Positions 24,157 to 55,231 of a DNA stretch of 64,000 bases are shown here, piece after piece. How positions within the stretch are numbered: the first letter of the stretch is position 1; every line of letters starts with the position of its first letter. A model generated the notes under the pieces. It ran no database searches. It had not been told where the DNA came from and saw nothing but the letters and a program-made list of their open reading frames with translations. The stretch covers positions 9,996 through 73,995 of the forward strand of contig CAYMQB010000007.1 of NCBI GenBank assembly GCA_964392665.1, read 5' to 3'. The translations under genes and the position numbers were made by a program. This stretch comes from an uncultured bacterium. GTDB taxonomy: Bacteria > Hydrothermota > E44-bin80.

Positions 24157-25133
24157 TCTTTTCCTCCCGATATAATAAGCAGTCCATTATTGCCTTTCCT
24201 TCCCCTTGGATGGAAATCCCTTATTATCTTTTGCAAATAATCTTTGGTAATGTGTGTGTATATCTGCGTCGTTGTTATATCGCTATGACCAAGAAGTGTT
24301 TGAACAACACGCAAGTCTGCTCCTCCTTCAAGTAGATGAGTTGCAAAACTGTGTCGGAATGTGTGAGGAGTAATCTTTTTTGATATACCCGCTTTCAAGC
24401 AGTATCTTTTGAATCGCTTCCAGAAACCCATTCTGCTCATTTTCTTACCACGCTTGCTAAGAAATAGCACACCATCTGATTTCCCCTTATCCAACTCACT
24501 CCTGGCTTTTGCAAGATATAAATTCAAAGAATCCATTGCATAATTCCCGATTGGTACAATTCTTTCTTTTTCACCTTTCCCGTAACAGATAAGGAAGGAT
24601 TCGTCGAAATCTATATTCTCAACTTTAAGACTTAACAATTCGGAAATTCTTAATCCGCAAGCATAAAGTAGTTCAAGTGCTGCCTTATCTCGTATCCCGA
24701 GAGTTTCTTTTCTCTCTGGTTGTTGAAGTATCTTCTCTATTTCACTAACATCAAGGACATTTGGCAGTTTTCTCTTGATCTGTGGTGACTCGATAATGGT
24801 TGTCGGGTCCTCCATTATTAATCCTTCTCCCATTAAGAATCTGAAGAAACTCCTGAGCGAACTAATTTTCCTTGAAAGTGTACTGGAGGCAATTCCTGGT
24901 TGATTAACAGATTGGATGAAATTTACTACATCGACCTCCTCCACCTTATCGAGTTTTCTGCTTTTGGATGTTACATATTTCGTAAATTGCCTGACATCTC
25001 TTTCATATGCATCAATGGTATTAAAGCTGAAGCCTCTTTCCCCGGCAAGATAATCCACATAGGATTTAACCACCTTTTCAATCCCATTAGAGTTCAAAAA
25101 CATCTCCTCTTTCCGGAATGTGAACGCTTCCAC
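24153..25133 (-). CDS. Tyrosine site-specific recombinase XerC/XerD
   Basis: C-terminal catalytic motifs R..HxxR..Y: HTFRHSFATHLLEGGADLRVVQTLLGHSDITTTQIYTH. Confidence 0.85.
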   Translation of the reverse strand: MEAFTFRKEEMFLNSNGIEKVVKSYVDYLAGERGFSFNTIDAYERDVRQFTKYVTSKSRKLDKVEEVDVVNFIQSVNQPGIASSTLSRKISSLRSFFRFLMGEGLIMEDPTTIIESPQIKRKLPNVLDVSEIEKILQQPERKETLGIRDKAALELLYACGLRISELLSLKVENIDFDESFLICYGKGEKERIVPIGNYAMDSLNLYLAKARSELDKGKSDGVLFLSKRGKKMSRMGFWKRFKRYCLKAGISKKITPHTFRHSFATHLLEGGADLRVVQTLLGHSDITTTQIYTHITKDYLQKIIRDFHPRGRKGNNGLLIISGGKD

Positions 25134-40333: not shown

Positions 40334-40903
40334 CTACTTCGACCACTTCGGACTAACTATCTTAAAGGTCGCATCCTTTTTGAAGGTTTCATCGCTGCCT
40401 TCTTCTATGTACAAGTGGCTGTCTTTCTGTCTTATGTAGTACCCTGGATAATTGTAAGATTCAAATGATGCCCCTGAAGTTTTTGCTAAGCCCTCTACCT
40501 TTTTGAACGTTGCATCTTTTTTGAATAATTCATCATCACTATATTCGTTTAATTTAACTCGGAAGTCCTCGTGCCTTAAATAGTATTTAGGATAGTTAAT
40601 CGATTCGAATGAAATGCATTTACTGTCAGCTAAACCCGATACGATCTTAAAAGTTGCGTCCTTTTTATCCAAGTCCGAACTTATTGTAGTAATCTCACCG
40701 AGAAAATCCCTGTGCCGAACGAAATGGTTGGAATCATTATATGATTGTAAAGAGAAAGTATTAGATTTAGTCTGTACAGGTTCGGATTCATCCTTTCCAT
40801 CTTTGGTGCCGCAACCAATAAACAAGGTCACCAGCAGTCCTATAAGGACAAGTATAATGAATTTTCTTCTCATCCTTACCTCCTTTCTTTTCAGGGGCAA
40901 CAT
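40334..40903 (-). CDS. Lipoprotein with three tandem CBM42/AbfB-like (arabinofuranose-binding) modules
   Basis: Lipobox LFIGC; three about 45-aa repeats KDATFKIVSGLA...SFES.NYPgYY(L/I)R(H/Q).D matching the AbfB ricin-like domain signature. Confidence 0.55.
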   Translation of the reverse strand: MLPLKRKEVRMRRKFIILVLIGLLVTLFIGCGTKDGKDESEPVQTKSNTFSLQSYNDSNHFVRHRDFLGEITTISSDLDKKDATFKIVSGLADSKCISFESINYPKYYLRHEDFRVKLNEYSDDELFKKDATFKKVEGLAKTSGASFESYNYPGYYIRQKDSHLYIEEGSDETFKKDATFKIVSPKWSK

Positions 40904-40961: not shown

Positions 40962-42083
40962 CTACCCAAGTTCTTTGAGTTCGTCTTCTTTGAAGGTTAC
41001 AAGTGGTGCTTCTTCTTCTAAATCTCTACCAGGTTTGTAATCAAAAGCTGCCTGTGTTTCATCGCCGATAAGGTGGAAAAGTTCATAAACCTTTATATCA
41101 TTTGGGCAGGCATCGCTGCATAAACCGCAACCAATGCACGAAGTTGACATATGCGAAAGCCTTCCGAGGTGAAAGAAAATTGTATCTGTTGGCAATTTCA
41201 CTGCACCCTTTTTTTCTGCCCAACCAAGAAAATTAAGCGCGGTAAACTCAAATGTGGGTGATTCCCAGAAACATTCCTTACAGAAACAGATTGGACACTG
41301 TCCCATACAATTATGACAATCAATGCATTTCGAAAAATATTTTAGCAATCCGTCTATACTTACAACTTGTTTTTTCGTCTCTTCCTTTACCTTTTCCCAT
41401 TTTTCCTTTCTTGTATCCCCTATTTTTTGCAGTTTTTCATCCCGCTTTTTCGCTTCGCTTTTTTCCAAACCGAGTTTGGCAACTATTTCCTTCCCTTTGT
41501 TTGTATTACCCTCTACAATATATCCGTCACCTTCGGTACCGATAAAACCAATACCAATATCAGCAAAATCAGTTGGAAAGAAATTCTCGCACAGTTTACA
41601 AGCATCTCTTATGTTCTCGTCCTGCTCGCCTTTCGCGAGATTTTTGGAAAAGTATTCTGAATCGATATCTTTACCACTACCGAGCGCATCCTCGTAGTAG
41701 TCTGTCTTGTAAGCGCCCATACAGTCATAGCTTATGAGGATAAGATTATCGAGTGTTACCTGTTTGAATTTAGCCAATTCCAACAATGTCCGTAGTTCAC
41801 AGGGTTTAAGAAAAACAAGGATCTTTTCAGGTGAAGAAGAAAACTTAGTTATTTTCGACACCAGAGCAGCAGTACTTACGGGAAGTACAGGAGCAATTGG
41901 TTTTGCACTTTCCAAAAGTTCTTTGTTCTTTACAAGTGTTGGAAAAACATTGTTCTTGGATGGAATAAGCATTGGAATAACAATGTTAGTAATTTTATTA
42001 TTTTCCATTATCTGCAGAAGGAATTCTTTTAGGTTTTTATTCGGGTTATCACCTGCCACATTTAATTTATATTTTTCACCCAT
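40962..42083 (-). CDS. FrhB/FdhB-family iron-sulfur flavoprotein-like subunit
   Basis: FrhB_FdhB N-domain-like segment (ILVFLKPCELRTLLELAK), two Cys clusters (CIDCHNCMGQCP; CIGCGLCSDACP). Confidence 0.55.
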   Translation of the reverse strand: MGEKYKLNVAGDNPNKNLKEFLLQIMENNKITNIVIPMLIPSKNNVFPTLVKNKELLESAKPIAPVLPVSTAALVSKITKFSSSPEKILVFLKPCELRTLLELAKFKQVTLDNLILISYDCMGAYKTDYYEDALGSGKDIDSEYFSKNLAKGEQDENIRDACKLCENFFPTDFADIGIGFIGTEGDGYIVEGNTNKGKEIVAKLGLEKSEAKKRDEKLQKIGDTRKEKWEKVKEETKKQVVSIDGLLKYFSKCIDCHNCMGQCPICFCKECFWESPTFEFTALNFLGWAEKKGAVKLPTDTIFFHLGRLSHMSTSCIGCGLCSDACPNDIKVYELFHLIGDETQAAFDYKPGRDLEEEAPLVTFKEDELKELG

Positions 42084-42176: not shown

Positions 42177-42592
42177 CTATACCGACCACTTTTTCCCTAT
42201 ATCTGATGGCCCCAGTTCTCTGATATGTTCCGTAAATTCCTTCATCGTTTGAGCGAATTTTCTTCCTTCGCTCGCACTTATCCATCTGAGCCAAAGTCTT
42301 CTCTGGTCCAGTCCTAAAGTTTTCATTATCGTTTCGAGAGTCTTTATTCGTCTCCTTGCTTTGTAGTTTCCCGATACATAGTGACAATCTCCCGGATGAC
42401 ATCCACCAATAATAACACCATCCGCACCTTCCAGAAAAGCCCGCCACACATAAGCAGTGTCTACTGAGCCCGAGCACATTACCCTGATGGGTCTGATATT
42501 GGGTGGATACTGCATTCTTGAGGTTCCTGCAAGATCGGCAGCGCTCGACGTACACCAGTTGCAAAAAAAACCTACAAGTTTTGGTTCAAATT
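42177..42592 (-). CDS. mvhD: MvhD-like (methyl-viologen-reducing hydrogenase delta subunit) Fe-S protein
   Basis: KLVGFFCNWCTSSAADLAGTSRMQYPPNIRPIRVMCSG is the canonical MvhD/FlxD signature. Start set at Met 42592 (MAGKFEP), which follows an AGGAGGGA SD. Confidence 0.8.
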
Positions 42593-42683
42593 TACCTGCC
42601 ATGTTCCCTCCTATGCAAATATTCAGCAAAATACGTGTTGAAACTTTCTAACTTAAAACTATGAACTCGTGTATTGTTTTAAG

Positions 42684-42758: not shown

Positions 42759-44453
42759 TCATTCTTCTTCATAAAATCCTGTCACGCCTCCCCCAAGAAA
42801 CGGGTCGAATTCTTTCCTATGTTTTCTAATAACCTCGAAGTTTCTATAATCAGGCAAAAGAATAGGCGCAATTCTCTTCGTCTCTATTCCTGCATCTTTA
42901 ATTTCTTTCTCATATTTTCGAATATGGTCAAAATGAAGTTTTCCCAGTGTTACTTCCTTTGCTCGCTCCGCAGCGTTTATACCTGCCCTTCTTCCAAATA
43001 CATTATAATCAAGAACCGAGTTACCCATTAGTCTGTTTCTTCCATGAAGACCTCCGGATGCTTCCCCTGCAATGTAAAGGTTTGGAAGGTTTGTTTCACA
43101 CTTACTATTTATCTCTATTCCGCCATTTTGATAATGCAGCGTTGGAAAAACAAGCATTGGGTATTTGGAAATATCTATCTCGAATCTGTGATATTGCCTG
43201 ACCATTGCAGGCAACGCTTTCCCTATGGTTCCAGGACCACTCAAAATATCTATAATTGGCGAATCGAGCCATATGCCTACTCTACCTGCTGGTGTCTTTA
43301 TGCCTTTATCCCTTTCCGTGCACTCTCTTATAAAGGCAGATGCCTCAACATCTCTTGGTTCAAGAGGAAATACGAAAAGTTCACCAAATTTGTTGACAGG
43401 CTGACCCCCAAGCCCTCTTACCTTTTCCGTAACAAGAAATCCAAGTATCTGTTCAGGGAAAACCGCACCGGTCGGATGATACTGAACAGTATCCATATAG
43501 ATTAATCTTGCGCCAGCTCTGTATGCAATAACAAGACCATCCGCTGTTGCACCATAATGGTTCGTTGTAGCAAAACCCTGGAGATGCAATCTTCCAAAAC
43601 CACCGGTCGTAATGATAGTTGTCTTAGCCTTGACAATCACATATTCTTCAGTTTCGGTCTGATACAGAAGTGCACCTGCAACCTGACCTTTATCGTCCAG
43701 TAAGAGCTCTATCGCAGGTGTATATTCAAGAATCGTAATATCCTCCGGGTGGTTTTTTACCTCATCCCTTAGGGTTCTCATTATCTCTGCACCTGTGTAA
43801 TCTCGACAGGATAACATCCTTCTTCGTGAAGTTCCTCCGCCTGCTTTTGTTGAAAGTGTTCCATCCTCTTCCTTATCCCACATAACACCCAGTTCTTCCA
43901 GATAGGCGGTAATCATAGGTGCATCCATTGTTGCTGCTCGAACAAGTTTGGGCTTATTATCGAAATGTCCGCCACCAATAATGTCCAGATAGTGTATTAT
44001 GGGAGAATCGTGTGGGTTAATAGATGCCTGCATTCCACCTTGTGACATCATAGAATTGGAATCACCAATCCTCAACTTCGTAGAAACAACTACTTTTGCA
44101 CCATGTTTTTGTGCCCATATCGCTGCCATCGACCCCCCCCCACCACCACCGATAATGAGTACGTCAACATCGAAATCTACTTTAGAAAGGTCAACATCAT
44201 CTGGATTAATCCGCGAATGTGATTCAAGTATATCTACAACTTTCGTAATCAGCTTTTCGCCTTTATTCGGACCAATTCTTATTGACTTCCTCGCTTTTTC
44301 TTTATAATCCGGGTGAAATTTGTTGAGCAGTTCGTCCCTTTCTTTAAGCGTAGTCGGCTCAACTACCGGCTTGCCTAATTTTGCAAGTTCGACACGTTTA
44401 GGTCTTGTTTTCTCGACAAGTTTCAGTGATTCCATCATATATTCAGGATACAT
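42759..44453 (-). CDS. Fumarate reductase/succinate dehydrogenase flavoprotein-like subunit (SdhA/FrdA/TfrA-like)
   Basis: FAD-binding GxGxxG (LIIGGGGGGS), substrate HPT (QYHPTGAV), HYxxGG (HYQNGGIEIN) and C-terminal AGEASGGLHGRNRLMGNSVLD motifs. It carries a 90-aa N-terminal extension. L-aspartate oxidase is not fully excluded. Confidence 0.7.
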   Translation of the reverse strand: MYPEYMMESLKLVEKTRPKRVELAKLGKPVVEPTTLKERDELLNKFHPDYKEKARKSIRIGPNKGEKLITKVVDILESHSRINPDDVDLSKVDFDVDVLIIGGGGGGSMAAIWAQKHGAKVVVSTKLRIGDSNSMMSQGGMQASINPHDSPIIHYLDIIGGGHFDNKPKLVRAATMDAPMITAYLEELGVMWDKEEDGTLSTKAGGGTSRRRMLSCRDYTGAEIMRTLRDEVKNHPEDITILEYTPAIELLLDDKGQVAGALLYQTETEEYVIVKAKTTIITTGGFGRLHLQGFATTNHYGATADGLVIAYRAGARLIYMDTVQYHPTGAVFPEQILGFLVTEKVRGLGGQPVNKFGELFVFPLEPRDVEASAFIRECTERDKGIKTPAGRVGIWLDSPIIDILSGPGTIGKALPAMVRQYHRFEIDISKYPMLVFPTLHYQNGGIEINSKCETNLPNLYIAGEASGGLHGRNRLMGNSVLDYNVFGRRAGINAAERAKEVTLGKLHFDHIRKYEKEIKDAGIETKRIAPILLPDYRNFEVIRKHRKEFDPFLGGGVTGFYEEE

Positions 44454-44603: not shown

Positions 44604-45296
44604 TTATGTTATATCAAAATCCAGCGATCTCTCTTTATATTTTTGTTTTAATTGTTCCGTGGGCATATTCATAATTTCTTCCATATCTCTATCGAATTTT
44701 CCTTCCTCTATTTCCTTAATTCGCGCGAACATTTGATTCGACCTCTTCGTAAGATACCTTCCGTATAATCTCCTTGCCAGAATCGCAACATTATATTGCG
44801 CCATCTCAGCCGGACACCTTATTGTGCATAAGCCACACATAATACAATCGAATGACATGTCTGCTGCCAACCAGATATCTCCTCTAATGATAGCATTTAC
44901 ATAGTCCATCACTTCTATTTCCTGAGGACAAATCTTTGTGCAGGTATTACAGGATACGCATCTAAAAACCTCGGGATAAAGCTTCGTAAAACTGGAGACA
45001 TCGGGTTTCAATTCTTCAACATTATATATTGCTTTTTGCGCGGGTGTAAAAGGAATCTGAGCAAGGTACATCCCTGGTTGAACCACAGTTTGACAGGCGA
45101 GACCACCTATAAGTTTGAAATCTCCTGCTAATCTATAAACGGTTGCACAGGCACCACAAAATCCTTCCCTACAACCAATACCCTTTTTTAATTGGAAACC
45201 CGCATATTCAAGTGCATCAATGATCGTAGAACCTTCCGGTACAAGGACTTTTTCGCCGATTATGTAAATTGGTATCATGTTTTTTTCAGGTTCCAT
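44604..45296 (-). CDS. Succinate dehydrogenase/fumarate reductase iron-sulfur subunit-like (SdhB/TfrB-like, soluble type)
   Basis: N-terminal 2Fe-2S motif CREGFCGACA plus two full CxxCxxCxxxCP 4Fe-4S motifs (no 3Fe-4S-type CxxxxxC), as in soluble thiol:fumarate reductases. Confidence 0.7.
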   Translation of the reverse strand: MEPEKNMIPIYIIGEKVLVPEGSTIIDALEYAGFQLKKGIGCREGFCGACATVYRLAGDFKLIGGLACQTVVQPGMYLAQIPFTPAQKAIYNVEELKPDVSSFTKLYPEVFRCVSCNTCTKICPQEIEVMDYVNAIIRGDIWLAADMSFDCIMCGLCTIRCPAEMAQYNVAILARRLYGRYLTKRSNQMFARIKEIEEGKFDRDMEEIMNMPTEQLKQKYKERSLDFDIT

Positions 45297-45465: not shown

Positions 45466-47421
45466 TTAATATTCCTCTGTTGCAACTTCTACCATATCAA
45501 AAATCTGTTTCTTCGTGAAGTTCTTGTGCTGCATAGCACCACTGGGGCAGGCACCTGCACAGGCACCGCATCCTTCACAAAGAGCTTCATTTACAACTGC
45601 TACATTCTTTATAGGGTCAACCTCCACGGCAGTGTATGCGCATACACTTTCACAATTCCCACACCCGGCACATATCTCTTCGTCTACATATGCAATCACA
45701 GGATTTCCAAAAATATAATCTTTGCTGAAGAGTGCAAGTACCTTTGCGGCTGCACCGGAAGCCTGAGAAACAGCATCTGTAATGTCTTTTGGAAACTGTG
45801 ACATCCCGGCAATAAAAATCCCCGATGTTAAAGTCTCAAGCGGTCTTAGTTTCAGATGTGCTTCCTGAAACCATCCAAATTCGTCAGTTGAAAGTCTCAA
45901 TCTTTTTGCAAGTTCACTGCTCCCTTCCGATGGAATGATAGCGGTTGCAAGAACCACCAAGTCGGTAGACAACTCCACCTGCTCGCCTGTGAGTGTATCA
46001 ACGCCCCATAGTGTTAGATTCCCATTTTGCCTTGATATTTTCGAAATTTTCCCCCTTATATAAATTACATTATCTTCTTCTTTTGCTCTCTGTACGAATT
46101 CTTCATATCCTTTGCCATTAGAACGTATATCTATATAGAATATGTATGCCTGACCATCGGGAACTGCGTGTTTGTAAAGCATAGCCTGCTTTGCAAGATA
46201 CATACAACACACCCTTGAGCAGTATGCAACCCCATGTTCCGGGTCACGAGAACCTGCACAGGAGACAAAAGCAACATCTTTGGGAATCATTCTATTAGAA
46301 GGTCTTATTGGGACCCCATCTGTAGGACCCGAGGGGCATAAAAGCCTTTCGAATTGAAGTCCATTTATCACATCAGGGTCATTTACATATTCCTTTATTT
46401 GTTCGTTGGGCATCAGGTCAAAACCTGTTGCAACAACAATAGCGCCAACTTCCTCCTCGACTATTCTATCTTCTTGAGAAAAATCAACAGCCTCTCTCGG
46501 GCAAATGGACTGGCAGACCCTACAAGTCCCTTTAGTGAAGTGACCACAGTATTCTCTGTCTATAACGGGTATGTTAGGAACAGCCTGTGGAAAAGGTGTA
46601 TAAACAGCTTTCCTTTTACTCAAACCTAAATCAAACTCGCTTGTAACCGTAGTAAGACATTTTTCTATACACAAACCACAGCCATTACATTTTTCTCTAT
46701 CGATATAAGATGCCTTTTCTTTTATCTTCACCTTGAAATTCCCGACATACCCACTCACTTCTTCCACCTCGCTAAATGCATATATCTTAATATTCGGGTG
46801 CTGTGCAGCGGATACCATCTTGGGTGTCTCTATACATTGCGGACAATCAAGCGTGGGGAATGTTTCTGAAAGCTGTATCATTTTTCCACCGATGCTCGGG
46901 CTTTTCTCCACAAGAATTACCTCGTAACCTCCATCTGCAATATCAAGTGCTGTCTGTATCCCCGAAATCCCCCCACCTATTACCACTGCCCGTTTATTCA
47001 ATGGTATTCTTGCCGGTTCCAAACTGGCATCGTTTATAAGTTTATTTACCGTCATTTCTATTATCTTTAGGGCCTTGTTTGTAGCAAACTCCTTACCCTC
47101 ATGCTCGTGTGGCCAGGAACATTGTTCTCTTATATTCGCAATCTCACATCTATATGGATTAAGCCCTGCCCTCTCTGCTGCGTTTCTGAATGTCACCTCA
47201 TGAAGTGTAGGAGAACAGTTAGCAATAACAATACCATCAAGATGTTCCTTTTTTATCGTCTCTTCGACAAGTGATTGCCCCGGGTCAGCGCACATATACA
47301 TATAATGTGTGGAAAAAACCACACCTGGAATCTTTAATGATTCCGCTGCCGCTTTTTCTACATCAACTGCTTTGGCGATATTTAAACCACAATGACAGAC
47401 AAAAACTCCAATTCTGTTCAT
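45466..47421 (-). CDS. hdrA: Heterodisulfide reductase subunit A (HdrA-like FAD/FeS flavoprotein)
   Basis: N-terminal IGVFVCHCGLNIA domain, FAD GGGISG, inserted ferredoxin CNGCGLCIEKC..., C-terminal CAGCGNCESVC / CEGCGACAGACP clusters. Confidence 0.85.
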   Translation of the reverse strand: MNRIGVFVCHCGLNIAKAVDVEKAAAESLKIPGVVFSTHYMYMCADPGQSLVEETIKKEHLDGIVIANCSPTLHEVTFRNAAERAGLNPYRCEIANIREQCSWPHEHEGKEFATNKALKIIEMTVNKLINDASLEPARIPLNKRAVVIGGGISGIQTALDIADGGYEVILVEKSPSIGGKMIQLSETFPTLDCPQCIETPKMVSAAQHPNIKIYAFSEVEEVSGYVGNFKVKIKEKASYIDREKCNGCGLCIEKCLTTVTSEFDLGLSKRKAVYTPFPQAVPNIPVIDREYCGHFTKGTCRVCQSICPREAVDFSQEDRIVEEEVGAIVVATGFDLMPNEQIKEYVNDPDVINGLQFERLLCPSGPTDGVPIRPSNRMIPKDVAFVSCAGSRDPEHGVAYCSRVCCMYLAKQAMLYKHAVPDGQAYIFYIDIRSNGKGYEEFVQRAKEEDNVIYIRGKISKISRQNGNLTLWGVDTLTGEQVELSTDLVVLATAIIPSEGSSELAKRLRLSTDEFGWFQEAHLKLRPLETLTSGIFIAGMSQFPKDITDAVSQASGAAAKVLALFSKDYIFGNPVIAYVDEEICAGCGNCESVCAYTAVEVDPIKNVAVVNEALCEGCGACAGACPSGAMQHKNFTKKQIFDMVEVATEEY

Positions 47422-48083
47422 TTTTGTCGTCCTTTCGAGTCTATTTTTAGAACTTCCTCTATTGTCTCGCCGGTATTTTTCTTTCTGAACTCGTTCAGTT
47501 TCCCAAAAATGTTATCATTCAGTTTAATAAATTCACCATCAATAGTAATCGCTCCTGTGGGGCAAACATACGCGCATCCACCACAACCAATACAGGTATC
47601 AGAAATCTCAATAAACGGAGTTGCTACCTGTCTTTCCGATCCCCTTCCCACAAAATTTATGGCATGTGCTTCCGCAATTTCATCACAAACTCTTATGCAG
47701 AGCCCACATAAAATGCAATTGTTTTTATCTTCCAAAAACTTCCCTGCCTTAGCACCCATTTCCCTTGCAAGTTCTCTGATAACCTCTGAAGTTGAACTGC
47801 GGGCAAGCAGAAGTTCCATTATACCCTTTCGCAATTTCTTAATCCTCTCTGTGTCCGTTTTTACTACAAGTCCAGGTCGAACAATATACAGACACGAAGT
47901 TACTACCTTGCTCCTATTCCCTTCTTGGACTTCAACACTACAAAGCCTGCAAGCCCCCGATGGAGAAACTGCTTCATGATAGCAGAGCGCTGGGATTTTT
48001 ATCCCAACTCGTCTTGCAGTAGTAAGTATTGTTTCCCCTTCTACTGCCCCAAATTTTTTGCCATCTATTTCTATCTCTATCAT
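47418..48083 (-). CDS. 2Fe-2S + 4Fe-4S ferredoxin-like protein homologous to the N-terminal domains of NuoG/HydA (no catalytic domain)
   Basis: MIEIEIDGKKF...CYHEAVSPSGACRLCSV (plant-type 2Fe-2S) followed by CILCGLCIRVC and CIGCGGCAYVCP; only 221 aa. Confidence 0.7.
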   Translation of the reverse strand: MIEIEIDGKKFGAVEGETILTTARRVGIKIPALCYHEAVSPSGACRLCSVEVQEGNRSKVVTSCLYIVRPGLVVKTDTERIKKLRKGIMELLLARSSTSEVIRELAREMGAKAGKFLEDKNNCILCGLCIRVCDEIAEAHAINFVGRGSERQVATPFIEISDTCIGCGGCAYVCPTGAITIDGEFIKLNDNIFGKLNEFRKKNTGETIEEVLKIDSKGRQK

Positions 48084-49903
48084 TTTTTAAACACCGCATC
48101 AAAATTGCACACTTGATAACATATTCCACATTTTATGCATTTCGATGTATCTATCACATGGTTCTCCTTTTGCTCCCCGGAAATAGCACCTACAGGGCAT
48201 TTCCTTGCGCACAGAGTACATCCTGTACACTTTTCCGGGTCAATCCCGTATTCTATTAATTCCTTACATACACCAGCAGGGCATTTCTTATCCTTAATGT
48301 GTGCGTTAAATTCGTCTCTGAAGAATTTTATCGCAGTGAGAACCGGATTTGCTGCACTTTTGCCAAGCCCACATAGAGCACCATATTGAAGGGTAAACGC
48401 TATCTCTTCTAATAACCCAATGTCTTCCTCTTTGCCTTCTCCACTTGAGATCCGATCCAATATTTCTTTCATTCTCTTCAGTCCTTCTCTGCAAGGAACA
48501 CATTTCCCACAAGATTCTGTTACAAGGAATGAAATGAAATATTTGGCCATATCTACCATACAGGTATCTTCATCCCCTACGACCATTCCACCCGAACCCA
48601 TCATCGAGCCGGCATTAGTCAGGCTGTCAAAATCAACAGGAAGGTCAAGCAGTTCTTCTGGCAAAAACCCCCCTGAAGGCCCACCGGTTTGAACCATTTT
48701 AAACTTTTTTCCCTTCTTGATTCCGCCACCAATATTGAAGATTATGTCCCTTAATGTGACACCCATTGGTACTTCGACAAGCCCAGTATTATTAACTTTA
48801 CCTGTCAAGGAAAAAACCTTTGTTCCTTTACTACCTCCCCATGGGCTCCTCGATACATCACCTGTCCCTATAGTGGTAAACCACTTCGCACCTCTGTTTA
48901 TTATCACAGGTATGTTAGCCCATGTTTCAACATTGTTGAGACAGGAAGGTTTGTTCCATAGACCATACTCAACGGTATGAATGTATTTCGCCCTTGGAAC
49001 CCCGGCTTTCCCTTCTAACGAAGCCATCAGTGCAGTTGATTCGCCGCAAACAAAGGCACCTGCACCTCTGTGAACTTCAATGTCAAAATTAAAACCCGTA
49101 TCAAAAATATTGTTACCAAGAAGTCCATATTCTCGAGCCTGCATAATAGCAGTATTCAAGCGATCCAATGCGATTGGATATTCTTTTCTTATATATACAT
49201 ACCCTTCTTGGGCGCCTACAGCATATGCACCTATAATCATTCCTTCAATAACAGAATGAGGATCAGACTCCATAATAGTCCTATCCATATATGCTCCAGG
49301 ATCACCCTCGTCTGCGTTACATATCACATATCTAATTTCCGACCTTTTTTCACCAGCCCGTCTACAGGATTCCCATTTGATACCCGTGGGAAAACCCCCT
49401 CCTCCCCTACCACGTAAACCTGATGCTTTAATCTCCTCAATTACCTCTTCTGGTTTCATAGTAGAAACCACCTTTGCGAGCGCAGAATATCCATCACGTG
49501 CGATATAATCAGTAATTTTTTCGGGGTCTATTAATCCCCTATTACGCAAGGCGATAAGAACTTGTTGTCTAAAAAACGGTATTTCCGGCAGAGTAGGGAT
49601 AGGCATTTTTTCCTTAGGTGGTGTATACATTAGTTTCTTTACAGGTCTACCTTTAAGAAAATGCTCTTCAACAAGAAACGGCACATCCTTTTCCTTAACC
49701 CCTTGGTAGAAAACGCCATCCGGTTGAACCAATATTATTGGTCCCGCATCACAAAAACCGAAGCATCCGGTTGAAACCAGCCTAATTTCTTCCGTAAGAT
49801 TGTGTTTCTTCAATTCTTTTGCAATACTTTCCCTTATTTCAAACGAGTTGTTTTCTATACAAGTTGTTCCCATACAAATCAAAACATCTGTTCTAAATGG
49901 CAT
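48080..49903 (-). CDS. NuoF/HndC/HydB-like NADH-binding FMN flavoprotein subunit (51-kDa-type)
   Basis: N-terminal thioredoxin-like 2Fe-2S, GRGGGGFPTG FMN/NADH site, SCGKCVPCREG N3 cluster, C-terminal 2x[4Fe-4S]. Confidence 0.85.
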   Translation of the reverse strand: MPFRTDVLICMGTTCIENNSFEIRESIAKELKKHNLTEEIRLVSTGCFGFCDAGPIILVQPDGVFYQGVKEKDVPFLVEEHFLKGRPVKKLMYTPPKEKMPIPTLPEIPFFRQQVLIALRNRGLIDPEKITDYIARDGYSALAKVVSTMKPEEVIEEIKASGLRGRGGGGFPTGIKWESCRRAGEKRSEIRYVICNADEGDPGAYMDRTIMESDPHSVIEGMIIGAYAVGAQEGYVYIRKEYPIALDRLNTAIMQAREYGLLGNNIFDTGFNFDIEVHRGAGAFVCGESTALMASLEGKAGVPRAKYIHTVEYGLWNKPSCLNNVETWANIPVIINRGAKWFTTIGTGDVSRSPWGGSKGTKVFSLTGKVNNTGLVEVPMGVTLRDIIFNIGGGIKKGKKFKMVQTGGPSGGFLPEELLDLPVDFDSLTNAGSMMGSGGMVVGDEDTCMVDMAKYFISFLVTESCGKCVPCREGLKRMKEILDRISSGEGKEEDIGLLEEIAFTLQYGALCGLGKSAANPVLTAIKFFRDEFNAHIKDKKCPAGVCKELIEYGIDPEKCTGCTLCARKCPVGAISGEQKENHVIDTSKCIKCGICYQVCNFDAVFKK

Positions 49904-49921: not shown

Positions 49922-50305
49922 CTACTCTGTCTTTTCGCTTCCCGCGGCCAATGCATATTCCTTAATTATCTCGCCCTTCTGAACATGCTTTTCAAATATT
50001 TCCTCTATTTTTTTCTCCGTAAGGTCAACATATTTAACAGGCGGCATCCCTTTAACTTCAACCGTTGCCATTGGCTCGCGGCTGCAAAGACCAGCACATC
50101 CACTGGTCGTAAGTATAACATCTTCCACTTGTTTTTCTTCTATTATCTTCAAGAGTGCATTCATAATTTTGCGTGCGCCTGCGGCAATTCCACAAGTTCC
50201 CATATGTACTACAATCTTAGCTCTTCCTTTTCCTTCTCGAAGAATGGAGGTTCTCCGAGCCTTTTCCTTTATCTTCTTCAAGTCCTCCGGTGTTATTCTC
50301 GGCAT
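49922..50305 (-). CDS. Thioredoxin-like [2Fe-2S] ferredoxin (HydD/HndB-like)
   Basis: About 127 aa, Cys pattern HMGTCGIAAG...SGCAGLC. Confidence 0.65.
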   Translation of the reverse strand: MPRITPEDLKKIKEKARRTSILREGKGRAKIVVHMGTCGIAAGARKIMNALLKIIEEKQVEDVILTTSGCAGLCSREPMATVEVKGMPPVKYVDLTEKKIEEIFEKHVQKGEIIKEYALAAGSEKTE

Positions 50306-50314
50306 TAATTCCTC

Positions 50315-50851
50315 CTAACCTTCCTCTGCTTTCAATTTTTCTTTTATCTCTTTGTATTTCTTGCTAATATCTACTTTCTTTCTTGGAATAGACCTGTACT
50401 TTTCCAGTATGCTCGGCACCTGATCGGGAGTAAAATTACCATATATTTCCCTGTTTATTGAAACTACAGGAGCCAATCCACAGCAACCGAGACATCTTAC
50501 AATATCCAGACTGAAATCCATCTTCTCGTCCATCTCATCAACCTTTATTCCAAGTTCCCTCTCGAATGCCTCAAGAATTATGTCTGCCCCTTGCACATGG
50601 CATGCTGTACCCATACAGACACCTATTCCGAATCTACCTCTTGGTTTTAAGCTGAAAGCCCTATAGAATGTTGCGATACTGACTATTTCTGATAAGGGTA
50701 CCTCTAAGCATTTGGACAACTCAGTCAATGAATTTTTAGGGAGATAGTTATACTCCTCTTGAATATCATGCAAAATCTCGATTAAGCAGTCTTTACGACC
50801 ATCCCATCGCCCTACTATTTCTTCAATTACCAGAGGATTTACTTCGTTCAT
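50315..50851 (-). CDS. NuoE/HndA/HydC-like 24-kDa-type [2Fe-2S] subunit
   Basis: CMGTACHVQG...RCLGCCGLAPV signature. Confidence 0.85.
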   Translation of the reverse strand: MNEVNPLVIEEIVGRWDGRKDCLIEILHDIQEEYNYLPKNSLTELSKCLEVPLSEIVSIATFYRAFSLKPRGRFGIGVCMGTACHVQGADIILEAFERELGIKVDEMDEKMDFSLDIVRCLGCCGLAPVVSINREIYGNFTPDQVPSILEKYRSIPRKKVDISKKYKEIKEKLKAEEG

Positions 50852-50867
50852 CTGTAATCCACCTTTT

Positions 50868-51401
50868 CTAAGTATTTCTCTTTTTTTTTAGACCTTCTCT
50901 TAATATTCTAATTCCCTGTGAAGAGCTTATGGGTATATCCTGGAGTTTTTCTCGAATCTCTTCTGTATCGAAAATAGAGAGTTTTCCATCTTTTCTGTGT
51001 TCATAAAGAAAATTAACCGATGGATTTCCAATAACAAGTGTTTCAATTGTTTTCCCGACATCACCGAGTGGCTGGCGATCAATATGGCTATATTGGAAAC
51101 TAGCTCTTACGATAGTTCCTTTTCCCTCGTTTGACTCTATGGAGAATTTTCCATTAGCCATTTCGGCTGCTTGTTTCAAGAGTGTAAGACCCAGACCAAC
51201 CTTTCTCACCTTTTTACTTGTGAAAAAGGGATCTGTTGCTTTTTCCAATATGTTACGTGACATACCCTCACCATTATCTCCAATTTCAATAGTTAGCTTA
51301 TCTTCCTGTATGTTTTCGTTTACAGCAATATGCACCTTGCTTGCTCCTGCTCTTACTGAGTTTTCGACAATATCCAGAACATGTAAAGAAATATCTTCCA
51401 T
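50868..51401 (-). CDS. Histidine-kinase-like ATPase (HATPase_c) domain protein
   Basis: GHKL N/G1/G2 boxes (ENSVRAGAS; DNGEGM; GLGLTL). Confidence 0.7.
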   Translation of the reverse strand: MEDISLHVLDIVENSVRAGASKVHIAVNENIQEDKLTIEIGDNGEGMSRNILEKATDPFFTSKKVRKVGLGLTLLKQAAEMANGKFSIESNEGKGTIVRASFQYSHIDRQPLGDVGKTIETLVIGNPSVNFLYEHRKDGKLSIFDTEEIREKLQDIPISSSQGIRILREGLKKKRNT

Positions 51402-51402
51402 G

Positions 51403-52146
51403 TTACTGTGCGCTTAAAACCTTTCTCCCCTCTACACCCTTAAATGCCTTGTAAAGTTCTTCCGCATTCGTATCTTCAAGTAAAAACGATGTTGTTTTCT
51501 TCCCGATGTCCTCCAAATAGTGAGCATCGGAGAAACTAACGATCGGAAAATTGTCAATCTCCGGATGAGTTACGCGTAACTGTCTCAATTTGCCTAACGA
51601 TGAAACCTCGACACCATCCAGCTTGAGTCCACTGGGGATAAAACCTAATTGACCAATAATGCTAAAAGCTTCTCGGTCAATATGTGAGGCAATAGCAACA
51701 CCACCCAGGTTATGAACTATATCGATAATTTGCTCGAGAAAAAGTGTTGTGGCTCCAATCAATAATCTCTCATTGATGCCGAGCATTTCGTCTTTGTCGT
51801 CCACTATTACCTGTTCACCAAAAACTACTTCATTATTGATTCCGGGTAAGTGTTCGTAAACTATATTTTTAATGTTTTCAAGTCCGGCGCCTGTCCTGAA
51901 AAATGCAAGAATGTGAGCTTCTTCCTGAGAGGTTATTTCAATCCCTCCTATAACAGACACCCCTTCTTTCTCTCCCGCTTTCTGAACAGCTGCAACATTT
52001 TCAGTTGTATTGTGGTCACATATTCCAATTATGTCCAAGTTTTTCTCCTTTGCCTTCATAATTATCAAAGTTGGTAGCATACTCAAATCACCACAGGGAG
52101 AAAGGCATGTATGAATATGCAAATCTCCTCTAAATTCCTCCAGCAT
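51403..52146 (-). CDS. PHP-domain (polymerase/histidinol-phosphatase-like) protein
   Basis: FRGDLHIHT..., later HxD metal motifs; probable start at internal Met (MLEEFRGDLHIHT). Confidence 0.7.
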   Translation of the reverse strand: MLEEFRGDLHIHTCLSPCGDLSMLPTLIIMKAKEKNLDIIGICDHNTTENVAAVQKAGEKEGVSVIGGIEITSQEEAHILAFFRTGAGLENIKNIVYEHLPGINNEVVFGEQVIVDDKDEMLGINERLLIGATTLFLEQIIDIVHNLGGVAIASHIDREAFSIIGQLGFIPSGLKLDGVEVSSLGKLRQLRVTHPEIDNFPIVSFSDAHYLEDIGKKTTSFLLEDTNAEELYKAFKGVEGRKVLSAQ

Positions 52147-52489
52147 CAGCAGTCCCAGGAATACCCATTCTATGTAATTTCCCAACAACTTCGAAAGCTG
52201 GTAAATTGCTCACCAAAATAGGTATTCCCTCTTTTTCAGCTTTTTTGATTGTTTCATTTTCAGGTACTCTACTATTAACCAACACAATTCCCGCAAGGTT
52301 CTTAAGCGAAGCAACAGCAACTATATTTTGATGAATTTGGAGTGTAATCCAGATATCTCCCTCGCGGCTATTTGCCATAACATCACTTAACAGATCACTA
52401 ACGTATCCTCCACTGATTTCTTTGTCAAGATTACTGGATCCAGTTTTTACATCAAGCTCCAATTTATCAACGATCTCTTTAAGTTTCAT
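52130..52489 (-). CDS. DRTGG-domain protein
   Basis: About 119 aa with the conserved D-R-T-G-G-like segment (GDIWITLQ...VNSRVP). Confidence 0.6.
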   Translation of the reverse strand: MKLKEIVDKLELDVKTGSSNLDKEISGGYVSDLLSDVMANSREGDIWITLQIHQNIVAVASLKNLAGIVLVNSRVPENETIKKAEKEGIPILVSNLPAFEVVGKLHRMGIPGTADAGGI

Positions 52490-53406
52490 TCTTTCCCCAT
52501 TTTGATAATTATCGTAATACGCGTCCCTTTTTCAACGGAAGAATCAATGGACATCTCATCGCTACACTTCTTAATGTTTGCCAACCCCATGCCTGCACCA
52601 AAACCCATCTCCCTGACCCAGTCGGGGGCAGTTGAATATCCGGGTCGCATCGCTTTCTCTACATCAGGAATCCCAGGGCCACTATCTTCCGCTTCAATTT
52701 TGATCAGCTCAGGTCTAACCTCTGCCTTTATTTTCCCTTTATCAGTAAAAACCACAATGTTCATTTCCGCTTCATAGGTTGCGATAGCCACCCTGCGAAT
52801 AATGCTGGGACTGATATTGAGACGGGTTAGAGTTTTCTTTAACTCACTCGAGCTCTTCCCTGCTTCCGAGAAATCTCTTCCATTAATACTGTAAAGTAGT
52901 ATCAGAGCAGCGTGGTCCGCAAGCGTATCTTCAAATATATGGCTTGCACGATAACGATGAATTTCCTCTTCATGATAATCTATTTCCAGACGTTTCAGCA
53001 ATCCTTTTATAATGTCACCTTTGGTAAGCATTCCAACAAGGTTTTTTGTTCCTCTGTCAAGAACAGGAAATCTCCCAAGCCCAAATTGGTCAAACTTACT
53101 TACCGCATGGATAACCGGATCATCCGCATACACGGTTTTTACACCTTTACTCATTCTTTTTTCTATTTCCGTATCCACTTCGCCACTTGATAGCCAGTTG
53201 ATAAAGTCCTCAATGCTGATAATACCCACAAGTGAATGCCCGTTAACAACAGGCACGCCGGATATATTGTTATCCTTCAATATTTTTCTTAACTCGCTCA
53301 TTAGCATCCTTGGAGAAACTGTAATAGTATTTTTCTTCATTACCTCACTCACCTTCAACTCGTAAGCAAGCTCTTGAACCCTGGTAAAACTCTGATCCTT
53401 CATCAC
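52486..53406 (-). CDS. CBS-pair + HATPase-like domain protein
   Basis: Two CBS motifs (ISGVPVVNGHSLVGIIS; LGRFPVLDRGTKNLVGMLT) then GHKL-like C-terminus (GFGAGMGLANIK). Confidence 0.65.
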   Translation of the reverse strand: MMKDQSFTRVQELAYELKVSEVMKKNTITVSPRMLMSELRKILKDNNISGVPVVNGHSLVGIISIEDFINWLSSGEVDTEIEKRMSKGVKTVYADDPVIHAVSKFDQFGLGRFPVLDRGTKNLVGMLTKGDIIKGLLKRLEIDYHEEEIHRYRASHIFEDTLADHAALILLYSINGRDFSEAGKSSSELKKTLTRLNISPSIIRRVAIATYEAEMNIVVFTDKGKIKAEVRPELIKIEAEDSGPGIPDVEKAMRPGYSTAPDWVREMGFGAGMGLANIKKCSDEMSIDSSVEKGTRITIIIKMGKE

Positions 53407-53765
53407 TTACTCTCTTTATACTCTATCCTCCCGAGTAAACCATTCTGATACAATTTTCCACACGCTTCAAACATTGTCAAATCAGTTGAAAGAAGTACAA
53501 TACCTTTTTCCTTTGCCAGTTCCACAGTCTCTTGTAATGGTTTTTTTGACCGAACAAAACAGATGGCAACCAGGTCAGCCATTTCTGCCGTGCGCACCGA
53601 CTGTGGATTTATAAGCCCTGTTAGTAACAGAGAACCTGATTTCATAAATGCCAGAACATCGCTCATCAGGTCTGAACCACCAGCCATTTTAATCTCTTTG
53701 TTCAAATCGTTGTCACCTGCAAGTACTACTGCATCTAGTATCTCTTTTATCCTTTCCAGTTTCAT
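53403..53765 (-). CDS. DRTGG-domain protein
   Basis: Paralogous to 52130-52489 (LLTGLINPQSVRTAEMADL). Confidence 0.6.
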   Translation of the reverse strand: MKLERIKEILDAVVLAGDNDLNKEIKMAGGSDLMSDVLAFMKSGSLLLTGLINPQSVRTAEMADLVAICFVRSKKPLQETVELAKEKGIVLLSTDLTMFEACGKLYQNGLLGRIEYKESK

Positions 53766-53840: not shown

Positions 53841-54734
53841 TCATACTTTCCCCTTAACCAAAAAACCCTTTTCTTCCATTTTCTCGGTTGGACTAACTAT
53901 ATTTAGGTCAAAACGAGTCCCTGATTCATCGTAACCGAAAGCAAGAGCCAACAGTTGAGTGAAGTAAACAATAGGCATTTTTTTGAAGCCGAAATATTTC
54001 TCAGCCACATCCTCCTGCTTTGCTTCAAGGTTATAGGCACAGAGTGGACAGGAAAGCGCTATAAGATCAGCGCCTGCATTCCTTGCCGAGTTGACTATCG
54101 TTCGTGTTCTTTCGATAACAATATCCGGTCTTCTCAATGTCTGATAACTTCCACAACATTCATTCTTATACGGAAATTTAACGGTTTCCGCTCCTGTCAA
54201 ATTAATCACATCTTCAAAAATCGTCGGTTCTTCAATGTCATCGATTGCTGCTTCTTCCGGTCGAAGGAGCATACAACCATAATAAGTTGCAATTTTTAAA
54301 CCACTTAGAGAAATCTTTGTTTGCTCTTTTAACCTATCAAATCCAATTCTCTTCAGTAACTCGAGCAGATGAATGACTTTGACCTCTCCGTCATATTTTA
54401 CGATTTCTTTGTACATAAAATCCTTTATTTTATCTTTCTTTTCAATATCCTTCTTAACAAGTAAATTTGCCCTCTTCAATGTGTTGTAGCACATCGAACA
54501 TAAAGTAACAACTTCACTTCCACCTTCTTCTTTAACCCTGAGAAGGTTTCTAACCGGAGCAAGCTGGTGTATGATATCATCGGAAGTTAGTGAATATACT
54601 GTTCCACAACAGGTCCATCTTTTCAACTCGTCCAATTCAATCCCGAGTTTTCCAAGAACTGCAATTGCTGAAATCTCAAAATGCTGAGCAGTCGTTTTTA
54701 TTGTGCATCCAGGATAATATTTTACCTTTTCCAT
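53841..54734 (-). CDS. hdrB: Heterodisulfide reductase subunit B (two CCG domains)
   Basis: YYPGCT...CCGT and YYGCM...CCGS: duplicated Cx(n)CCGx(n)CxxC cysteine-rich domains. Confidence 0.85.
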   Translation of the reverse strand: MEKVKYYPGCTIKTTAQHFEISAIAVLGKLGIELDELKRWTCCGTVYSLTSDDIIHQLAPVRNLLRVKEEGGSEVVTLCSMCYNTLKRANLLVKKDIEKKDKIKDFMYKEIVKYDGEVKVIHLLELLKRIGFDRLKEQTKISLSGLKIATYYGCMLLRPEEAAIDDIEEPTIFEDVINLTGAETVKFPYKNECCGSYQTLRRPDIVIERTRTIVNSARNAGADLIALSCPLCAYNLEAKQEDVAEKYFGFKKMPIVYFTQLLALAFGYDESGTRFDLNIVSPTEKMEEKGFLVKGKV

Positions 54735-54739
54735 GTTTC

Positions 54740-55231
54740 CTAAGAAGTAAGCTTTCTGAATGTTCCAACAAGAAGTATCGGTGGAGCTTTTTCTAATTCT
54801 TCGGGATTGACATCCTTCAGTTCGAAATCATCCTTCTTTGCTCGTAAAGATACCTGCCTTAAGGATTCCATAATAGCAGCAACGTCTATTCCTTTTGGAC
54901 ATCTCGAAGAACACACAAAACAGGAACAACAAGCAAAGGGTGTATTTGTTTCCAGAATTCTCTTAACATTTCCAAATTGCAGAAGCCTCATTACCTGATT
55001 GGGGAGCAAGTCCATAAAAGGAGCGGAGGGACATCCTGCCGAGCACTTGCCGCATTGATAACAGGAATACTGGTTTTCGAGAGAAAGGGTTATTACTTTT
55101 GTTGTTTCTGCGTTTCTAATATCTTTCGTTTCTATCTTTCCCACTATAGTACTCCTTTCCGAATAAAAAAAACACTTTATTGTATACAACTTCTTGCTTT
55201 CTTTGTCAAGCCTTTTTGTTAAACTTTTCAC
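54740..55231 (-). CDS. hdrC: Heterodisulfide reductase subunit C (2x[4Fe-4S])
   Basis: CYQCGKCSAGCP and CCSCFVCSSRCP; 60-aa N-terminal extension suggests the real start may be internal/non-ATG. Confidence 0.75.
   Translation of the reverse strand: MKSLTKRLDKESKKLYTIKCFFYSERSTIVGKIETKDIRNAETTKVITLSLENQYSCYQCGKCSAGCPSAPFMDLLPNQVMRLLQFGNVKRILETNTPFACCSCFVCSSRCPKGIDVAAIMESLRQVSLRAKKDDFELKDVNPEELEKAPPILLVGTFRKLTS

Follow-up and report, generated by a model that had tools for sequence, protein, structure and literature searches.

We analysed a 64,000-nucleotide stretch of DNA (hereafter the window) from an uncultured bacterium of the Hydrothermota (assembly GCA_964392665.1, contig CAYMQB010000007.1). 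An open reading frame (ORF) at 47418–48083 on the reverse strand encodes a Type-2 BfuA, a 221-residue iron-sulfur protein with one [2Fe-2S] site (A1) and two [4Fe-4S] sites (A2 and A4), without A3, A5 or a catalytic domain. Most likely, with a probability that we put at about 0.7, this protein is a wire connecting an NADH/ferredoxin bifurcating BfuBC core to an Hdr module. The protein itself is an ordinary, well-conserved three-cluster wire of a known class and is nothing new in kind. The BfuA class has already been classified and has a solved structure; the combination of Bfu, Hdr and Tfr-like genes and the fusions of split HdrA to Bfu subunits in other lineages appear to be undescribed.

A three-cluster iron-sulfur protein of the Type-2 BfuA class

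A preliminary description, made from the sequence alone, had taken the ORF for a stand-alone N-terminal electron-transfer module of the HydA/NuoG type, devoid of any catalytic domain, and the Pfam search of the 221-residue translation bore this out. The ORF starts at an ATG and runs for 221 codons, and all three motifs quoted in that description are present in its translation. Fer2_4 matched residues 1–78 (E 3e-18), while the 4Fe-4S dicluster was matched by Fer4_7 (residues 122–178, E 1e-10), with Fer4_7, Fer4_21 and Fer4_Nqo3 together covering residues 119–180. Pfam detected no catalytic domain in BfuA, and neither NADH-G_4Fe-4S_3 nor Fe_hyd gave a match. The [2Fe-2S] ligands are C34, C45, C48 and C64, and the two [4Fe-4S] sites are formed by C123/126/129/133 and C163/166/169/173. 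Since all 12 of the 12 cluster cysteines are invariant in 19 homologues of 50–86% identity, the observation lies far beyond chance.

The alignment to the HydA and NuoG N-termini agreed with the earlier assignment in part. The N-terminal domains are shared, but HydA1 aligned in two separate blocks, namely residues 1–97 of BfuA with HydA 3–96 and residues 114–182 with HydA 137–207. The HydA stretch carrying the His-ligated cluster was skipped, and its counterpart in BfuA (residues 98–113) is 16 residues long and contains no cysteine or histidine. Judged from its sequence, BfuA, unlike the HydA and NuoG N-termini, is without the His-ligated [4Fe-4S] cluster (A3/N5), a difference that the preliminary description missed. 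Residues 182–221 (47418–47540) form a Cys-free tail (GKLNEFRKKxTGET...), which is kept only in the closest relatives; in other BfuA subfamilies the tail is a WorA-like CxxC...CxxC zinc finger, or the protein ends directly after the ferredoxin domain. The C-terminal tail may act as a partner-docking element, although the confidence of the structural model is low in this region.

Type-2 BfuA proteins, exemplified by WorA, HytD and BamI, have neither A3 nor A5 and receive electrons from additional subunits through A4 (Schut et al., 2022; PMC12318220, PMC9304861). The window protein has the A1 site and the A2 and A4 dicluster, has no A3, A5 or catalytic domain, and is encoded together with BfuC and a BfuB that carries extra clusters. 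Candidate third-substrate subunits, namely HdrABC, MvhD and a TfrAB-like pair, adjoin it. The closest solved structure by sequence is WorA (9MQX chain A, 247 residues), which is colinear with BfuA over residues 2–181 (E 4e-38). The 9MQX entry is the tungsten aldehyde oxidoreductase WorABCSL of Acetomicrobium mobile, in which WorA holds clusters A1, A2 and A4 and has neither A3 nor an alpha/beta catalytic domain (PMC12318220). WorA was also the closest fold to an AlphaFold model of BfuA built with 19 homologues (mean predicted local distance difference test score 86), with template modelling scores of 0.78/0.70 and an E-value of 8e-21. The fold matches that came after it were HydA, NiFe-HydA, formate dehydrogenase, the complex I 75-kDa subunits and HoxU.

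The curated NCBIfam models scored far below their cut-offs, and those for HoxU (142.9, rounded to 143, against 333), group A6 [FeFe] hydrogenase (NF040763, 138 against 765) and NuoG (104 against 470) matched only the N-terminal part of BfuA. HoxU was the top model (E 1e-41), many homologues have been named 'bidirectional [NiFe] hydrogenase diaphorase subunit' by the Joint Genome Institute, and MvhG/MvhA-like genes follow a BfuA::HdrA fusion in one surveyed locus (L029), all of which would fit a diaphorase subunit of the HoxU type in an NAD-linked [NiFe] hydrogenase, the name that several public annotations give to homologues. We nevertheless regard this identity as very improbable: besides the score, the good match is confined to residues 3–96, the region of the His-ligated cluster is missing from BfuA, and no homologue or motif of the [NiFe] large or small subunit was found in the 64-kb window. 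The tblastn searches for MvhA, MvhG, CooS and AOR homologues, together with the search for [NiFe] motifs, likewise returned nothing in the window.

The gene lies where hydA would sit, as had been stated, in that it takes the A-subunit position of a HydABC-type (Bfu) operon in the order NuoE-like, 2Fe-2S protein, NuoF-like, ORF. This position, shared with hydA in HydC-(HydD)-HydB-HydA operons, and the HydA-like N-terminal domains would also be expected if the ORF were a pseudogene left by truncation of a full-length hydA. That reading is excluded. A3 is missing as well, which a fresh truncation would have retained, and the overlap with hdrA leaves no spare DNA. BfuA is under purifying selection, with dN/dS values of 0.09 and 0.11 against two relatives and similar values for the neighbouring genes. 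Furthermore, each of the 120 nearest clusters at 90% identity is short (186–256 residues), so that a recent truncation of HydA was rejected.

The H-cluster motifs TSCCP (L1) and ExMxCxxGCxxG (L3) were absent from all six frames of the 64-kb window, and [MF]PCxxK (L2) gave three spurious loose matches in non-coding frames. The ORF is thus not a degraded full hydA, and, with the NF040763 score given above, its identity as an [FeFe] hydrogenase HydA was rejected. The HdrA start carries no fused remnant of an H-domain either, as residue 3 of HdrA aligns with residue 5 of the M. wolfeii protein. A HMMER scan of 1.84 billion representatives retrieved 278 clusters at 50% identity (E<=1e-30); among the best 150 of these, 105 were of 320 residues or fewer and 8 had the HxxxCxxCxnC motif. 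The domain swap that the preliminary description had proposed did not take place locally in a hydA gene, BfuA being a member of an old and large family of short, A3-less proteins; a swap of modules survives at the level of the operon and is taken up in the last section.

The bfu-hdr-tfr gene cluster

Four-nucleotide ATGA overlaps are found at both ends of bfuA, one with the NuoF-like gene (48080–49903) and the other with hdrA (45466–47421). The overlap with the NuoF-like gene and the succession of hdrA were as described before, and hdrA proved to be overlapped too and translationally coupled. All of the genes in question lie on the reverse strand, and their order of transcription is HdrC, HdrB, a regulatory cassette, BfuC, a small 2Fe-2S protein, BfuB, BfuA, HdrA, TfrB-like, TfrA-like, MvhD and FrhB-like. 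This arrangement of 16 genes is common to three WOR-3-like lineages, that is, the window and two relatives whose BfuA is 86% and ~74% identical. The flanks of the cluster vary among the three lineages, with the recA-recX side retained.

The Bfu part of the cluster comprises BfuC, a NuoE/HydC-like protein of 178 residues (50315–50851) that matches 2Fe-2S_thioredx over its full length (E 5e-47), BfuB and BfuA, with a small thioredoxin-like [2Fe-2S] protein of 127 residues (49922–50305) encoded between BfuC and BfuB. BfuB, a NuoF/HydB-like protein of 607 residues (48080–49903), consists of an N-terminal thioredoxin-like [2Fe-2S] domain, the FMN/NADH core, an NADH_4Fe-4S domain and a C-terminal 2x[4Fe-4S] domain. 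It is colinear from end to end with the HydB, NiFe-HydB, WorB, StnB and NfnB chains (E 1e-193 to 1e-238), whereas the non-bifurcating NuoF/Nqo1 align only with residues 126–540. This full-length alignment with the bifurcating chains shows that BfuB possesses the additional cluster domains, one at each terminus, by which bifurcating cores are recognised.

HdrA (651 residues, 45466–47421) is complete, with N-terminal, FAD, inserted ferredoxin and C-terminal ferredoxin domains. It matches the HdrA2 model (E 6e-226) and is colinear with the Methanothermococcus and Methanothermobacter HdrA structures (5ODC_A, E 8e-193, residues 3–645 against 5–647). HdrC-like (163 residues, 54740–55231), with a 4Fe-4S dicluster, and HdrB-like (297 residues, 53841–54734), with two CCG domains, are encoded ahead of the bfu genes. 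The genes that follow hdrA encode an Fe-S protein of 230 residues that resembles the N-terminal part of SdhB/TfrB (44604–45296), an SdhA/FrdA/TfrA-like flavoprotein of 564 residues with a 95-residue N-terminal extension (42759–44453), the MvhD/FlpD [2Fe-2S] adaptor (42177–42629, FlpD E 7e-54), which has 150 residues from a TTG start and 141 in public gene calls, and an FrhB/FlxB-like iron-sulfur (flavo)protein of 373 residues (40962–42083).

The TfrA-like flavoprotein retains the substrate motifs of fumarate reductase and succinate dehydrogenase (HPTG, RGxGG, HxxGG and RxxGNS), and the histidine for covalent FAD attachment is absent. Its top curated model was thiol:fumarate reductase TfrA, under the cut-off. 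The family is unusually conserved, being ~70% identical across phyla, with 67–90% identity among WOR-3, Cloacimonadota, Aerophobetes, Aminicenantes and Clostridiales metagenome-assembled genomes (MAGs), and a candidate division WOR-3 bacterium is given as the source of one flavoprotein with more than 90% identity. The preliminary description had cast HdrA as the terminal module of the system. This did not hold, as HdrA stands as a second hub amid HdrBC, MvhD, the TfrAB-like pair and the FrhB-like protein.

The regulatory cassette (50868–53765) has five genes, encoding DRTGG, CBS+HATPase, DRTGG, PHP and HATPase proteins. It also accompanies the Bfu genes in loci L001, L009, L029, L038, L057, L062 and L063 of the survey given below, and it lies between bfuB and bfuA in L009, L038, L062 and L063; in L090 its last HATPase is fused to BfuC (362 residues). 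Compared with L084 and L090, the modules differ in divergence: HdrA and the TfrA-like protein are 87–88% identical to both, while BfuB is 93%/73% and BfuA 86%/~73–74% identical. This unequal divergence hints at different rates or at an exchange of the Bfu module.

The cluster is followed by an AbfB-domain lipoprotein gene (40334–40903, reverse strand), and in L081 also by a C25 (gingipain-type) peptidase. Elsewhere in the window, an ORF of 916 codons (21406–24156, reverse strand) without a Pfam match lies in the most compositionally skewed stretch, with a GC skew of -0.43 and an AT skew of -0.44 at 22–24 kb. A tyrosine recombinase gene (24153–25133) lies directly upstream of it with a 4-nucleotide overlap.

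HdrA fusions and the proposed coupling of two bifurcating hubs

The neighbours of the family were surveyed with one genome per GTDB species, which gave 393 relatives; the analysis covered the 80 best loci, of which 78 had BfuA. BfuB was the usual neighbour, adjacent to BfuA in 71 of the 78 loci. HdrA was fused to BfuA in 11 loci, was the next gene in 4, lay elsewhere within 10 kb in 9 and was absent from this distance in 54, and was thus close by in only some third of the loci. The suggestion that such short ferredoxins always stand beside hdrA was thus not borne out. The opposite concern, that BfuA might be a generic fragment without a link to Hdr, was justified to the extent that most loci are without HdrA, but the link to Hdr is recurrent and includes the 11 fusions. 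MvhD follows the Hdr genes in most of the Hdr-linked loci. A neighbour-joining tree of 79 BfuA domains placed the Hdr-linked members in at least five separate groups, a result that is qualitative only, given its long and unsupported branches.

The 11 fusion loci (L029, L032, L036, L037, L038, L045, L052, L057, L062, L063 and L075) come from taxa that include Chloroflexota, Acidobacteriota, Aerophobetes, Bipolaricaulota, Zixibacteria and an archaeon of the Altiarchaeales. In these loci hdrA is split inside the inserted-ferredoxin domain by a bfuC-bfuB-bfuA cassette. The N-terminal piece of HdrA comprises residues 1 to ~255, including the first CxxCxxCxxxCP motif, and the C-terminal piece (residues ~260–650) is fused behind BfuA. 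The N-terminal piece, or its 152–255 part, is joined to the N-terminus of BfuC in 6 of the 11 loci, with BfuB next. Both chimeras were confirmed by Pfam in L075 (6796–8088 and 9980–11767), a Zixibacteria locus that also has MvhD and the TfrB-like/TfrA-like pair. The BfuA::HdrA fusions support a direct link between BfuA and HdrA, and they say more than the placement of the bfu genes between hdrCB and hdrA and their translational coupling to hdrA.

Following these observations, we propose that BfuA docks on the BfuB/BfuC core and would have no substrate site of its own. The core is predicted to use NADH at the FMN and ferredoxin at the extra clusters, and BfuA would wire BfuB to a third-substrate module via HdrA/MvhD. 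This module would most likely be composed of HdrA-MvhD-HdrBC with the TfrAB/fumarate-reductase-like flavoprotein pair and the FrhB-like protein. The assembly would then combine two bifurcating hubs, one at the Bfu FMN/FeS site and the other at the FAD of HdrA, as in BamGHI-BamFED. The high-potential branch of HdrA could run to HdrC/HdrB and/or to the TfrB-like and TfrA-like proteins, with a fumarate-type substrate at its end, and the low-potential branch to ferredoxin or the FrhB-like protein. We infer the contact of BfuA with HdrA/MvhD, the direction of the electron flow and the fumarate-type high-potential acceptor in the window organism.

The wiring of BfuB to HdrA/MvhD is proposed because of the analogy with class II benzoyl-CoA reductase (BCRII). 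In that enzyme the BfuCB-like BamGH draws electrons from NADH and reduced ferredoxin, and cryo-electron microscopy revealed a path from H4 through I1–I3 of BamI to the C-terminal ferredoxin domain of the HdrA-like BamE, then to the MvhD-like BamF and the bifurcating FAD (10.64898/2026.04.10.717634).

Several points weigh against this reading. HdrA is absent within 10 kb from the 54 loci mentioned, and other downstream partners recur, as seen from their sequences: CODH/ACS, AOR (Bam-type loci, Desulfosarcina), glutamate-synthase-like proteins, [NiFe] hydrogenase subunits and FrhB/F420-type C-terminal fusions. This range of partners agrees with the published Type-1/Type-2 catalogue (Schut et al., 2022). 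Because of these loci and partners, BfuA is a generic adaptor of the BfuBC core, with Hdr as one recurrent partner. In the window, gaps of 93–169 bp separate the genes downstream of hdrA, and separate transcription of the tfr-like genes is conceivable. When 40–56 kb was scanned for promoters and terminators, the counts were at or under the shuffle expectation and did not define the operon boundaries.

There is also a thermodynamic puzzle, in that Bfu, if it confurcates NADH and reduced ferredoxin, would use ferredoxin that HdrA would remake, for a net gain of nil. This would be avoided if NADH served as the only effective donor, something observed in part for BamGHI (10.64898/2026.04.10.717634), or if the low-potential acceptor were a different one. 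Finally, the fusions tether BfuA beside the inserted ferredoxin domain of HdrA, while the entry in BCRII is the C-terminal ferredoxin domain and MvhD. Because the tether differs from the BCRII entry, BfuA may meet HdrA at either place and electrons may run either way, and the opposite topology, with Bfu on the low-potential arm of HdrA, is conceivable.

The absence of HdrA from most loci, the many surveyed operons that end at BfuA and the gaps after hdrA would equally suit a self-contained NADH:ferredoxin module, BfuCBA, whose partner is encoded elsewhere, the Hdr/Tfr-like genes then being an independent neighbouring enzyme. We consider such independence unlikely, as it is difficult to reconcile with the ATGA overlap of bfuA and hdrA, with the position of hdrC and hdrB upstream and hdrA downstream of the bfu genes on one strand, with the identical arrangement in three lineages, and with the BfuA::HdrA and HdrA::BfuC fusions found in 11 loci from several phyla. 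A wire between the BfuBC core and the Hdr module remains the preferred role of BfuA.

As a more tentative proposal, which we rate as possible but doubtful, coupled Bfu-Hdr double-bifurcation assemblies might constitute a widespread, unrecognised class and not a peculiarity of benzoyl-CoA reductase. The assembly of the WOR-3-like window would then drive a TfrAB/fumarate-reductase-like output, and in at least 11 other lineages the bfuC-bfuB-bfuA genes inserted in hdrA would place Bfu on the low-potential arm of HdrA. This arm delivers low-potential electrons in methanogens, and the topology would represent a coupling geometry other than that of BCRII.

In the literature searched, no description was found of the BfuA/BfuC-HdrA fusions or of the Bfu-Hdr arrangement, which could be covered in the HdrA-module review of Appel et al. 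(2021). Several genome papers that name both NuoEFG and HdrA do not describe the arrangement, and one of the supplements of the Bfu family paper (Schut et al., 2022) does not mention Hdr. BCRII has been presented as the first enzyme coupling HydBC-type and HdrA-type bifurcation modules (10.64898/2026.04.10.717634). The window and its relatives, together with the fusions of split HdrA, suggest that such coupling is much wider and has other outputs, here a conserved fumarate-reductase-like flavoprotein. If true, smaller and perhaps more tractable new systems would become available for work on the coupling of two bifurcation sites, and the finding would bear on the balance of NADH, ferredoxin and C4-dicarboxylates in uncultured sediment bacteria (WOR-3, Zixibacteria, Chloroflexota and Aminicenantes).

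Comparison with known systems

The [2Fe-2S] and ferredoxin-like domains of BfuA have the same fold and succession in the N-termini of HydA, NuoG/Nqo3 and HoxU, whose genes likewise come after a NuoF-like gene. These proteins differ in having the His-ligated A3/N5 cluster, and in HydA and NuoG large C-terminal domains follow. WorA is more similar, being a short stand-alone BfuA with A1, A2 and A4, with no A3 or catalytic domain, and with a full bifurcating-type BfuB and BfuC encoded alongside. In WorA, however, there is a zinc finger at the C-terminus, and a helix serves to recruit WorS, whereas the window BfuA has a Cys-free tail.

BamI of the Geobacter metallireducens BamBCDEFGHI complex likewise is a three-cluster wire, running from a NuoF/NuoE-like pair to an HdrA-like/MvhD-like module (preprint 10.64898/2026.04.10.717634; PMC9304861), and two bifurcation modules occur in one system. 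Loci with a Bam-like gene order (L061, L066, L015 and L025) fall in the same family as the window BfuA, at 41–51% identity. In Bam the HdrA is double and fused (BamE), BamD resembles HdrD, the MvhD is long (BamF) and the catalytic unit is the tungsten BamBC, whereas the window encodes a single canonical HdrA, separate HdrB and HdrC, a short MvhD and the TfrAB-like pair, and no AOR. Membership in BamI/BCRII was rejected, with no AOR homologue in the window and HdrA in single copy.

The Hdr/Tfr part of the cluster has its closest counterpart in the Hdr-Flx-Kor-Tfr layout of Ca. Endoriftia persephone, a candidate NADH-driven bifurcating fumarate/ferredoxin reductase that feeds 2-oxoglutarate synthase (PMC11636981, PMC13147460). 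HdrA, HdrB(C), MvhD/FlxD, the FrhB/FlxB-like protein and the TfrB-like and TfrA-like pair are orthologous between the two. The NADH input of Ca. Endoriftia is an FlxA-type NAD_binding_1 protein and korDABC lies between hdrB and hdrA, whereas the window has the regulatory cassette and BfuC-Fd-BfuB-BfuA in this place and no FlxA or Kor genes. The window system thus falls outside Hdr-Flx-TfrAB, as FlxA and the Fer4_22 subunit are absent and the rest is present, with BfuCBA standing for the NADH module.

A Clostridiales MAG and an Aminicenantes MAG have the order HdrB, KorDABC, HdrA, MvhD, FrhB-like, Fer4_22, NAD_binding_1, TfrB-like, TfrA-like. The TfrA-like protein and its FeS partner were observed beside Hdr/MvhD genes with different NADH modules in L087, L088 and L089. 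HdrA, MvhD, TfrB-like and TfrA-like are orthologous between the window and L087/L088, with 52–68% identity (68% for TfrA-like); the FrhB-like protein is weakly similar, at 26–32% over part of its length. Because the Hdr/Tfr core recurs with a Flx-type NADH module and the window has BfuCBA, what was swapped on the Hdr/Tfr scaffold is, on sequence grounds, the NADH-input module as a whole, and not the H-domain for HdrA.

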